Below are positions 2,068 through 56,237 of a DNA stretch of 64,000 nucleotides, piece after piece. The DNA is taken from positions 36,642,001 through 36,706,000 of the forward strand of contig OZ024751.1 of the NCBI GenBank assembly GCA_964016885.1, read 5' to 3'. The number at the start of each line of letters is the position of its first letter. The stretch's first letter is position 1. Both the position numbers and the translations under genes were made by a program. Source of the stretch: Eledone cirrhosa. Lineage: Eukaryota. A model generated the notes under the pieces. That model made no database searches and was not told the DNA's origin. It saw nothing but the letters and a program-made list of their open reading frames with translations.

Positions 2068-2256
2068 GGAACCAGTAAGACCCCGACAGCTGAGCTCAAG
2101 CCGTTTCGACGGCTAATTCTGGACAGAATTAGCCGTCGAAACGGCTTGAGCTCAGCTGTCGGGGTCTTACTGGTTCCTATTACCCACTCTACTACCTCAA
2201 GTATTGAGTACTTTGGTGCGTTATGGTCCACCTGGTTCCTTACCACATTTCCTTCG

Positions 2257-2258
<2 letters not shown>
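2068..2258 (+). mobile_element. Family A fold-back element (hairpin 2068-2177 plus ~80-nt tail) carrying the 3' half of a hammerhead
   Basis: Perfect inverted arms. Right arm reads C-GAAA-CGGCT-tgagctc-AGCTG-TC-ggggtc. Tail ttacccactct...ccttcgtt. (TA)n on both sides; about 20 copies or fragments in the window. Confidence 0.9.
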
Positions 2259-3291: not shown

Positions 3292-3485
3292 TAGGCGGTG
3301 GATTGGAAGTATCGGTCGAGGGTCGGACGCCATGCTTTGACGCATAGAGTTACGGCCCTTGCCATTCTGAGTTCAAATCCCGCCGAGGTTAACTTTGCCT
3401 TTCATCCTTACGGGGTCAATAAAATAAAGTACCAGTAATACACTGAGTAATTGGTGGCCTTGTGCCTAACGTAGAAACAATTATT
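3292..3485 (+). mobile_element. tRNA-derived SINE, family S1
   Basis: B-box-like gagttcaaatccc followed by the core actttgcctttcatcctt.cggggtc.ataaaataaagtaccagt; more than 12 copies in the window. Confidence 0.85.
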
Positions 3486-7800: not shown

Positions 7801-7845
<45 letters not shown>

Positions 7846-7847
<2 letters not shown>

Positions 7848-8040
7848 AACGAGTAGGACCCCGACGGCTGAGCTCAAGCCGTTTCGACGGCTAATTCTGG
7901 ACTAAAAATCCAGAATTAGCCGAAACGGCTTGAGCTCAGCCGTCGGGGTCCTACTTGTTCCTATTACCCACTCTACTACCCTAAGTATTGAGTACTTTGG
8001 TGCGTTATGGTCCACCTGGTTCCTTACCACATTTCCTTCG

Positions 8041-8042
<2 letters not shown>
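7846..8042 (+). mobile_element. Family A fold-back element
   Basis: Same hairpin plus tail as 2068-2258, TA-flanked. Confidence 0.92.
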
Positions 8043-8077
<35 letters not shown>

Positions 8078-10340: not shown

Positions 10341-10594
<254 letters not shown>

Positions 10595-13231: not shown

Positions 13232-13412
13232 CCTGATGTCTTCCAAAAGTAACGGTCGCATTTTGAAAGGGTACGTCAATGTTTATTTATAAAACTGGTA
13301 TATATTGTATTTTGTCTGATGAAGGCATACCATAATTTAACTTGGTATCCTTGAAATATGTATAATGAAATAAATATGGTTTTATAAATATAGTTTCCAT
13401 TTGTTAATATCG
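13232..13412 (+). mobile_element. Family D arm-only copy with hammerhead motif at 13308-13372
   Basis: TATTTTGT-CTGATGA-AGG(c)ATACCA-loop-TGGTAT(c)CTT-GAAA-TATGTA-TA-ATGAAATA; ends at the same boundary as the arms of 14324-14758. Confidence 0.85.

Positions 13413-44231: not shown

Positions 44232-44233
<2 letters not shown>
44042..44233 (+). mobile_element. Family A fold-back element (ggagaatgtttaa variant)
   Basis: Hairpin plus tail, TA-flanked. Confidence 0.9.
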
Positions 44234-48201: not shown

Positions 48202-48241
<40 letters not shown>

Positions 48242-48430
48242 CGAAGGAAATGTGGTAAGGAACCAGGTGGACCATAACGCACCAAAGTACTCGATACTTA
48301 GGGTAGTAGAGTGGGTAATAGGAACAAGTAAGACCCCGACGGCTGAGCTCAAGCCGTTTCGACGGCTAATTCAGTTCAGAATTAGCCGTCGAAACGGCTT
48401 GAGCTCAGCCGTCGGGGTCTTACTTGTTCC

Positions 48431-48494: not shown

Positions 48495-48560
<66 letters not shown>

Positions 48561-49021
48561 TAAGTTATTCCGGGTTGAATCGGAGGTAACCACAGTAAGT
48601 AAGGTACTCAATACGTAGCAGAGTATAAAAGTTTTTATGTATATATATATATCATCTTACTGTCGAAACGGTCGGGGCTCAGCCTATATATATATATACA
48701 TATATATAACAAAGAAAGTGTGGTAGGAAACCAAGTGCACCATAACGTACCAGAGTACTCGATACTTAGGGTAGTAGAGTGGGTAATAGGAAAAGAGTCA
48801 GCACCCCAACGGCTGAGCTCCGGCTGTTTCGACAGCTAAATCCGAACCCACTTTTTTCATATATATATCCTATATATATATATATATATATCAGATCGAG
48901 TGTGGTAAAATCCAGGTAGACCATAACCCACTAGAGTACTCGATACTTGGAGTAGTAGAGTGGGTAATATGAAAAGCTGTCGAAACGGCCGGAGCCCAGC
49001 CATCGGGGTCCTGAATCTTTT

Positions 49022-49063
<42 letters not shown>

Positions 49064-49235
49064 AACATTCAGGACCCCGACGGCTGAGCTCCTGTCATTT
49101 CAACAACTAGATCCGAAACGGCCGGAGCTCAGCCGTCGGGGTCCTTAATCTTTTCATCTTTGCCACTCTACTAACCCAAGTAGCAATTATTCTGGTGAGT
49201 AATGGTCTAACGGGTTTTTACCGCCTACAATCTGA
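48173..49235. mobile_element. Cluster of family A copies (48240-48430 -, 48708-48858 -, 48892-49023 -, 49061-49235 +, small fragments) plus a family E tail
   Basis: Each piece is separated from the next by (TA)n. Confidence 0.88.
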
Positions 49236-50538: not shown

Positions 50539-51033
50539 TATAAGTATGTATACGTACATACATATATGTATATAGACGTACAGTAGTATGTATACATATA
50601 CATACATGCACACATATATATATATGTACGTATGGATTCACCGAACATTTATTATAATGCTCGGTGTGTTTGTAAACAAACATCCCGAATTAAGCCGTAC
50701 AGGGTCCAGCAACCATCGTTGCCCTTTGGTTCAACACTGATAGCTAATAAGCTTGAAACTAGTACATCGTTCCTTTGTCAGTGTTGAACAAAAGGGCAAC
50801 GATGGTTGCTGGACACTGTACGGCTTAATTAAGATGTTTGTTTACCAACACACCGAACATTGTAATAAATGTTCGGTGAATCCATACGTACATATATATA
50901 TGTGTGCATGTATGTATATATATACATACTACTGTACGTCTGTATACATATATGTATGTACGTATACATACTTATAATTAAGTAACAGCCGTACTAAGAG
51001 TGAGAAATGAAATTTCGTTTCATTTTTTCCGTT

Positions 51034-56080: not shown

Positions 56081-56082
<2 letters not shown>

Positions 56083-56237
56083 CGAAGGAAGTGTGGTATG
56101 GAACCAGATGGACCATAACGTACCAGAGTACTCAATACTTAGGGTAGTAGAGTGGGTAATAGTAAAATGTTTGACCACGACGGCAGATTTCTGGACTCGA
56201 AACGGCTTGAGCTCTGCCGTCGGGGTCAAATATTTCC
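56081..56237 (-). mobile_element. Family A element with partly deleted hairpin
   Basis: Tail plus shortened arms, TA-flanked. Confidence 0.87.

Follow-up and report, generated by a model that had tools for sequence, protein, structure and literature searches.

The repeats here termed family A, which recur throughout the 64-kb stretch of Eledone cirrhosa DNA that was analyzed (the window), are, judged from their sequence, the ribozyme/tail segment of a Penelope-like element (PLE) of the Hydra clade, and their hairpins probably represent two target-primed cDNAs that ran off the 5' end of one RNA and were then joined end to end. The half-ribozyme found in these copies would reflect the position of the transcription start, rather than priming at helix II of the hammerhead as was proposed in the first-pass annotation.

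The copy at 7846-8041 is a hairpin with a one-sided 76-nt tail, flanked on both sides by (TA)n runs, and consists of a 58-nt arm, an A5 joint, and an oppositely oriented 133-nt arm (Table 1). Its predicted fold (-119.9 kcal/mol, z -16.5) was matched by 0 of 200 shuffled sequences. Positions within the motif are numbered with the G of GAAA as 0, which is nucleotide 7885 on the minus strand in the tail-less arm of this copy. By our reading, family A is present at 18 sites in the window, 12 of which have a mirror arm and 6 of which do not (3090, 27738, 30329, 32495, 48709, and 41293), and exact family A arms number 32,725 in the 3.0-Gb genome. The earlier statement that the family always folds back is therefore too strong, the more so as 1,954 arms genome-wide keep the whole motif.

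Table 1. Family A features in the window, numbered from its first nucleotide
Feature	Positions	Strand	Basis or remark
Left (TA)n target	7804..7845		sequence
Tail-less arm, from the putative inner reverse-transcription start at +42 (GTTCC/TAT) back to A(-18), the putative RNA start	7846..7903	-	reverse-transcription start at +42 proposed from bimodal 3' ends and PMC11167929 (in part)
A5 joint linking the arms; up to 3 letters possibly templated by the parent's TTT	7904..7908		sequence
Tail-bearing arm, from -16 to the outer start at +119 (CTTCGT/TAT); GTC before GAAA absent here	7909..8041	+	
Hammerhead 3' half: GAAA, helix III whose loop is the palindrome GAGCTC, GUC, and GGGGT as the 3' strand of helix I	7922..7949	+	
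Predicted cut within 7922..7949	between 7944 and 7945	+	hammerhead convention, supported by excess ends at +23
Tail of 76-77 nt bounded by the two start sites and, in the intact element, continuous with the 5' UTR and ORF	7965..8041	+	
Right (TA)n target	8042..8074		
Family A hairpin copy	2068..2257	+	
Mini copy: tail-less arm extending at most to the predicted cut (G+23) and fused with a shortened tail arm	10341..10432	+	
Family A hairpin copy	14049..14260	-	
Family A hairpin copy (older)	16760..16944	+	
Solo tail-less arm, untemplated G directly before A(-18), the putative cap signature within the window	27738..27795	-	
Tail-only copy	30329..30405	+	
Single arm, older lineage, joined to unrelated DNA	32495..32617	+	
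Hairpin copy, older lineage	33973..34146	-	
Family A hairpin copy	42741..42946	-	
Family A hairpin copy (older)	44042..44232	+	
Family A hairpin copy	48241..48430	-	
Three consecutive older-lineage copies	48709..49234		48709-48858 a single arm; mirror arms present in 48892-49026 and 49061-49234
Family A copy, mirror arm partial	56082..56237	-	

The parent element is represented by L134, an intact head-to-tail unit of 3,118 bp in which the motif and tail are followed by TATCTAG..., an ATG (3380), an open reading frame of 719 amino acids, the 3' UTR, and the motif again. The single ORF encodes a reverse transcriptase and then a C-terminal GIY-YIG domain without CCHH; the protein contains RLRWR at 35 (R for K), DKT at 117, YRDD at 348, and CNCPDRSIC at 572 and, in its C-terminal part, YIG at 606, CNLC at 670, and CKH at 698, with one Cys between VIY and YIG. 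Assignment to the Hydra clade was by these motifs of the ORF, following the definitions in section 11 of PMC8557442 (in part). A protein search gave 2,054 homologs at E 1e-20 or better, and among the 120 of them that were listed most are about 40% identical and nearly all are unnamed. A broken RT-GIY-YIG element with family A at its end is present in L050, a piece of which gave a weak match to the Pfam GIY-YIG model (E 0.02, below the cut-off), with no match on two other pieces. Upstream sequence is common to L010, L011, and L029, and the junction of tail and UTR occurs in 325 genome copies. Family A thus lies at the 3' end of the element and also forms its first 60-137 nt, ahead of the 5' UTR; it is inserted in (TA)n, with tandem or inverted pLTRs and a one-sided tail. 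A different, second Hydra-like ORF remnant, with a CNCRNRVDC linker, is present at 1069-2360 of L050, separated by 2 kb from the element that carries family A.

The sequence of long copies is ACCCC-YTGANAA-G-NN-CGGCTA...TAGCCG-TC-GAAA-CGGC-9 nt-GCCG-TC-GGGGT, the pattern matched by the 1,954 arms noted above. In the parent, the core reads UUGANAA (U3-A8) and is located about 55 nt upstream of GAAA; helix II covaries, and the core boxes (U3-A8, N7 = G/T/A/C, GAAA, and GUC) are present in two lineages; one lineage has CTGAGAA, a C3-A8 mismatch. The older lineage (89 matches) has TTGATAA, keeps G10.1-C11.1 and has TTAGT at the same distance, with loop II replaced and G-C changed to A-U in helix II. 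In 21 chosen copies (7 of 30 young and 14 of 30 old), 90.5% of cells are paired as compared with 19-50% in slid controls; the two-sided changes comprise three pairs, in helix II only, that mainly separate the two lineages, and helices I and III are almost invariant. The hammerhead fold is the minimum-energy fold in one of seven copies, is within 1 kcal/mol of it in two, and lies 2.4-7.2 kcal/mol above it in four. The parent motif is predicted to be a type I hammerhead capable of self-cleavage, with a core (TTGANAA or CTGAGAA) that differs from the canonical CUGANGA. A canonical hammerhead is described for the Hydra clade, outside its protein definition (PMC8557442, in part); a literature search on C3U/G8A found no paper.

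The first-pass annotation, which took the motif in the short copies to be half of a hammerhead, was correct in this respect: GAAA-CGGCT-tgagctc-AGCCG-TC-GGGGTCC is present at 7922-7951 and is the 3' half of a type I hammerhead, but the GTC that it placed before GAAA is missing from this right arm and is found in the left arm. Neither CUGANGA, as had been noted, nor the true 5' core lies within 70 nt upstream in any of the 25 GAAA-bearing arms of the window, and Rfam at gathering thresholds gave no match in the window. The copy at 7846-8041 lacks the 5' core and the 5' strands of helices I and II and has no complete core in cis; most insertions cannot self-cleave in cis, as the annotation also proposed, and it is possible that the half-motif is a substrate for cleavage in trans. 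The apparent helix II on which the hairpin axis had been placed is, however, the mirror arm itself. The true 5' strand of helix II (CGGCTATT) is found in the parent, some 35 nt farther upstream, and the axis lies within loop II, immediately 5' to the 3' strand of helix II. A genome search for CTGANGA-containing parents, set beforehand as a test, gave 19 matches 4-30 nt before the motif, none of them a native parent; on reading of all 19, the CTG was traced to the mirror arm or else to DNA that is captured or foreign. The search fails because the parent core is UUGANAA, without CUGANGA, and the half-ribozyme reading holds despite this. Chimeric hammerhead-like motifs, in which the CTGATGA core and stem of other repeat families are fused at GAAAC to the right half of family A, were observed in L042 and L043 (G000:C8:46772763-46772811 and C10:12474826-12474882).

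The 5' ends of the arms are sharply bounded. Among 101 arms, 86 end no more than 24 nt upstream of GAAA, 15 extend beyond 55 nt, and none ends at 25-55, a gap with P about 1e-16 under a constant hazard. The edge of this stop is at TT(T/C)AGTC, with the A at -18 and ends spread from about -12 to -21. The TYAGT at the stop is initiator-like, resembling the initiator consensus. An untemplated G directly before A(-18) was found 3,045 times, as compared with 599 for A, and in the older lineage, which has a different loop II, 391 times as compared with 103. No G precedes A(-18) in 100 long arms among those listed. By our own reading, the mirror arm does not explain the G in about 18 of 30 such loci and could do so in about 12. 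In 32 short arms the letter before A(-18) is T in 14, C in 9, G in 7, and A in 2 (13 long arms were re-sorted by hand); since G is a minority here, starts at -19 to -21 or A-tailing would also occur. An extra G is a mark of the cap in full-length L1 insertions (PMC11702581, in part). Together, TYAGT and the extra G suggest that -18 is likely to be a capped transcription start. In a set of 30 loci that have the tail-UTR junction, a start near -18 is also seen for several copies carrying the 5' UTR, and in L254, L255, L256, L257, L259, and L281 the sequence passes from the UTR or ORF directly back to -18, which indicates that the template ran on into the ORF and ended at -18. In L254-L255 (G000:C1:27009638-27009920), 257-bp tandem units extend from the -18 start through the tail and 5' UTR to the first ORF codons, a half-ribozyme mini-array that may have arisen by repeated template jumps. 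Contigs of four sequencing runs and of one have a depth step near -18, which cannot show RNA ends and is not evidence on this point.

The stop at -18 adjoins the helix II 3' strand, and it could be supposed that, on a long RNA, reverse transcription begins at the 3' copy and is arrested by helix II, loop II, or a bound protein. The spread of the ends and the minority of G at -19 are in keeping with such a road-block, but it does not explain why two lineages should have a specific extra G that the joints at +23 lack, nor why no ends fall between -25 and -55, where the enzyme would be crossing the remaining structure, and the spacing of TYAGT is retained where the rest of loop II has been replaced; we consider a road-block unlikely. 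The very high copy number and uniform length of the short copies might alternatively point to an origin from a single non-autonomous master RNA of SINE-like kind, or from a few of them (or from a master hairpin), beginning GAGUCC, and short copies could be transcribed if the promoter is internal. However, joints vary widely among copies, the extra G is found on several haplotypes whose long parents carry T or C at that position, and the copies that continue into the 5' UTR and ORF begin at the same place, so that a master RNA appears very improbable. That the stop might be caused by TTTAG/TTCAG acting as a 3' splice site or branch point was considered and dropped, because the arms include the AG and have an extra G in place of exon sequence.

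The 3' ends of the arms form two main peaks. In an unselected sample of 60 loci, covering the first 100 matches on C1, 60 arms end at +42 and 52 at +119, and TAT is next in the parent at both positions. Exactly one tail is present in 43 of 44 hairpins (P 5e-12 against 50%), and this is also the case in 7 long pairs. The haplotype is common to both arms in 36 of 44 pairs, whereas about 18% would be expected for random pairs; one RNA therefore probably served as template as a rule, but not always, because 8 pairs are discordant, and in at least L124 and L141 (also L018) arms match other lineages. The joints contain filler in 14 of 44 hairpins, in some cases A/T like the A5 above, and overlap in 23. 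Of 52 pairs, the arm extending further 5' is the tail-less one in 28 and the tail arm in 20, and 4 are equal (three further pairs split by BLAST were left out, and one row is a mis-pairing), and a second count gave 19, 17, and 7 of 43, respectively. The excess of the tail-less arm often exceeds 15 nt, e.g. in L104, L114, L125, and L152, but it should be noted that later deletions at palindrome centers could blur arm lengths.

These arm lengths bear on the possibility that the hairpins arise by self-priming, in which a single cDNA would snap back on itself, at helix II or at a short palindrome, and the mirror arm would be copied from it. The haplotypes shared by most arms, the overlaps at joints, and the clustering of joints near AATT and TCGA palindromes are all compatible with such a snap-back. 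However, only a cDNA begun at the tail could template both arms, and the tail-less arm would then never reach further 5'; its greater reach in 28 of 52 pairs is impossible for a tail-first fold-back without later deletion and contradicts the snap-back priming from helix II that was put forward in the first-pass annotation. Moreover, the short RNA does not include the helix II 5' strand, many joints contain fillers, and discordant haplotypes exist. Because deletions at palindrome centers may have occurred later, self-priming keeps a small share of probability. Repeat fragments captured at family A joints, which we take to be a common tRNA-like SINE, are present in L019 and L300; this SINE also lies at about 3330-3420 of the window.

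A minor 5' stop coincides with the predicted cleavage site. Arms starting at G(+23), directly after GUC, number 214, compared with 54 at the single control position, +21, with patterns that required a preceding A; 28 of 30 are true ends at +23 and 15 of 30 at the control. Loci in which both arms end exactly at +23, with A or AA as the filler and without a G, number 10 of 30 as compared with 0 of 30 (Fisher P 8e-4). Joints at the cut were counted only if filler was present, because microhomology at CG gives the same joint as the palindrome GACCCCGGGGTC, which was rejected as evidence of cutting. Jumps from the UTR or ORF to +23 are present in L274 and L276. L295, a sole case among the loci examined, is a long, otherwise continuous arm in which AC and 27 A residues are inserted exactly at the cut. 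Position +23 would be the 5' end left by hammerhead cleavage of a read-through RNA containing the whole ribozyme, and the stop there is likely to be a DNA record of the predicted ribozyme cutting in the living animal.

The origin that we favor, two cDNAs primed on the target, would proceed as follows. Transcription would start at -18, inside loop II, and the front end of the mRNA would therefore carry only the 3' half of the ribozyme. The enzyme of the element would prime both cut ends of the (TA)n target, at +42 and +119 on one RNA, and the cDNAs would run off the cap in most cases, or rarely off the ribozyme-cut end, before being joined head-to-head. For long copies that cross -18 without a scar, candidate sources are read-through RNA, circles, or a jump between the 45-nt repeats. 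Head-to-tail arrays of four copies with a spacing of about 3.54 kb are present in L262-L265 (G000:C1:91476611-91487263) and at C1:437200347-437210965, and the -18 scar is absent from the four copies inspected.

In LTR retroelements, priming near the RNA 5' end gives minus-strand strong-stop DNA, a short cDNA that ends at the cap. It is conceivable, although we regard it as doubtful, that the PLE replicates in an LTR-like manner, with the cap inside its own hammerhead, cleavage and polyadenylation at the downstream copy, and a 45-nt R at both ends. A cleaved mRNA would have, at both ends, the 45 nt that extend from -18 to the cut, like R, but the primer would be nicked target DNA rather than tRNA, there are two starts and no integrase, and strand transfer is hypothetical. 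The cDNAs would begin near the 5' end and reach the cap or cut as strong-stop DNA; a jump to the RNA 3' end would be needed for full-length or tandem copies, and most such jumps would fail, leaving the end-joined family A hairpins. The poly(A) at the cut in L295 might then be one such jump caught in the genome.

Two other classes of element were considered and rejected. In non-LTR retrozymes, as defined in 10.64898/2026.07.22.740005 (in part), tandem units each contain a whole hammerhead, whereas the short copies are inverted pairs with half a ribozyme. A MITE or DNA transposon would have a fixed length and matched terminal inverted repeats, but the ends of family A are asymmetric (+42/+119), the centers are variable, and the parent encodes a reverse transcriptase.

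The element class, the tail, the inverted pLTR, and the U3-A8 core are already known. The Hydra clade of C-terminal EN+ PLEs (Craig et al. 2021, PMC8557442, in part) resembles the family A element in having RW(K/R), DKT, a CxCX5C linker, a single ORF, and a GIY-YIG at the C terminus without CCHH, with CxxC and CxH around the conserved E and N, and also in (TA)n targeting, partial tandems, an inverted copy, and a one-sided tail. It differs in that its hammerheads are canonical and its tail is 30-40, whereas in family A the core is U3-A8, loop II is long, and the tail measures 76 nt. The element is not Hydra-1_Obim, a member of that clade whose protein starts differently and whose core is canonical (CTGAAGAG); neither of two family A motifs occurs in the supplement to that paper. 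PLE hammerheads, including the U3-A8 variant in Cercyon of Schistosoma (Cervera and de la Pena 2014, PMC4209133, in part), resemble that of family A in their type I topology, U3-A8 core, retention of G10.1-C11.1, unpaired bases where helix II begins, and palindromic loop III. Family A is distinguished from the PLE hammerheads of that work by a full 5-bp helix III and a loop II of about 33 nt that holds the putative transcription start, and its promoter would thus split the ribozyme. Penelope of Drosophila virilis (PMC2377424, in part) has an internal promoter with an initiator start site inside the pLTR, as is proposed here for family A.

The Anolis carolinensis Poseidon, PAc (Frangieh et al. 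2024, PMC11167929, in part), provides an in vitro counterpart: two adjacent internal starts bound the tail, as in family A, and are near the RNA 5' end, the target is AT-rich, and both target strands are extended. The PAc start site has no homology to the target, whereas TAT follows both family A starts. Cleavage was not needed in that study, and in the part available no reads begin or end at the hammerhead cut, whereas genomic copies of family A stop at the predicted cut and the likely cap. In Penelope of Adineta vaga (PMC3846280, in part), an inverted tail-less pLTR lies at the other end, as in family A; inversions are attributed there to self-priming, whereas family A arm lengths favor two cDNAs. 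The in vivo role of PLE hammerheads is stated to be unclear (PMC8557442, in part), and an open-access literature search found no description of cap-ended or cut-ended PLE copies. The tens of thousands of family A copies may be regarded as a fossil 5' RACE, with one stop marked by a cap-like G and another exactly at the predicted cut. Such a record allows the start site, the cut, and both priming sites to be predicted to the exact base, and the arm lengths are a test of self-priming versus twin cDNAs for the inverted pLTR.

Other repeat families accompany family A in the window. One, also inserted in (TA)n, has a canonical CTGATGA...GAAA motif (13232-13412 and 14324-14758), and the copy at 14324 is a long fold-back with the motif on each strand. 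A further fold-back family (38980-39183, 48559-48639, and 33480) has GAAACAG...CTGTA, an axis near a CTGATGA, and a GTACTCAATAC-like tail sequence in common with family A. More fold-back families in (TA)n are located at 2557-2824, 15533-15749, and 50626-50891, one of them with CTGACGA on the minus strand at 15689, and a TA-rich minisatellite of about 1.2 kb at 35490-36700 dominates inverted-repeat searches.
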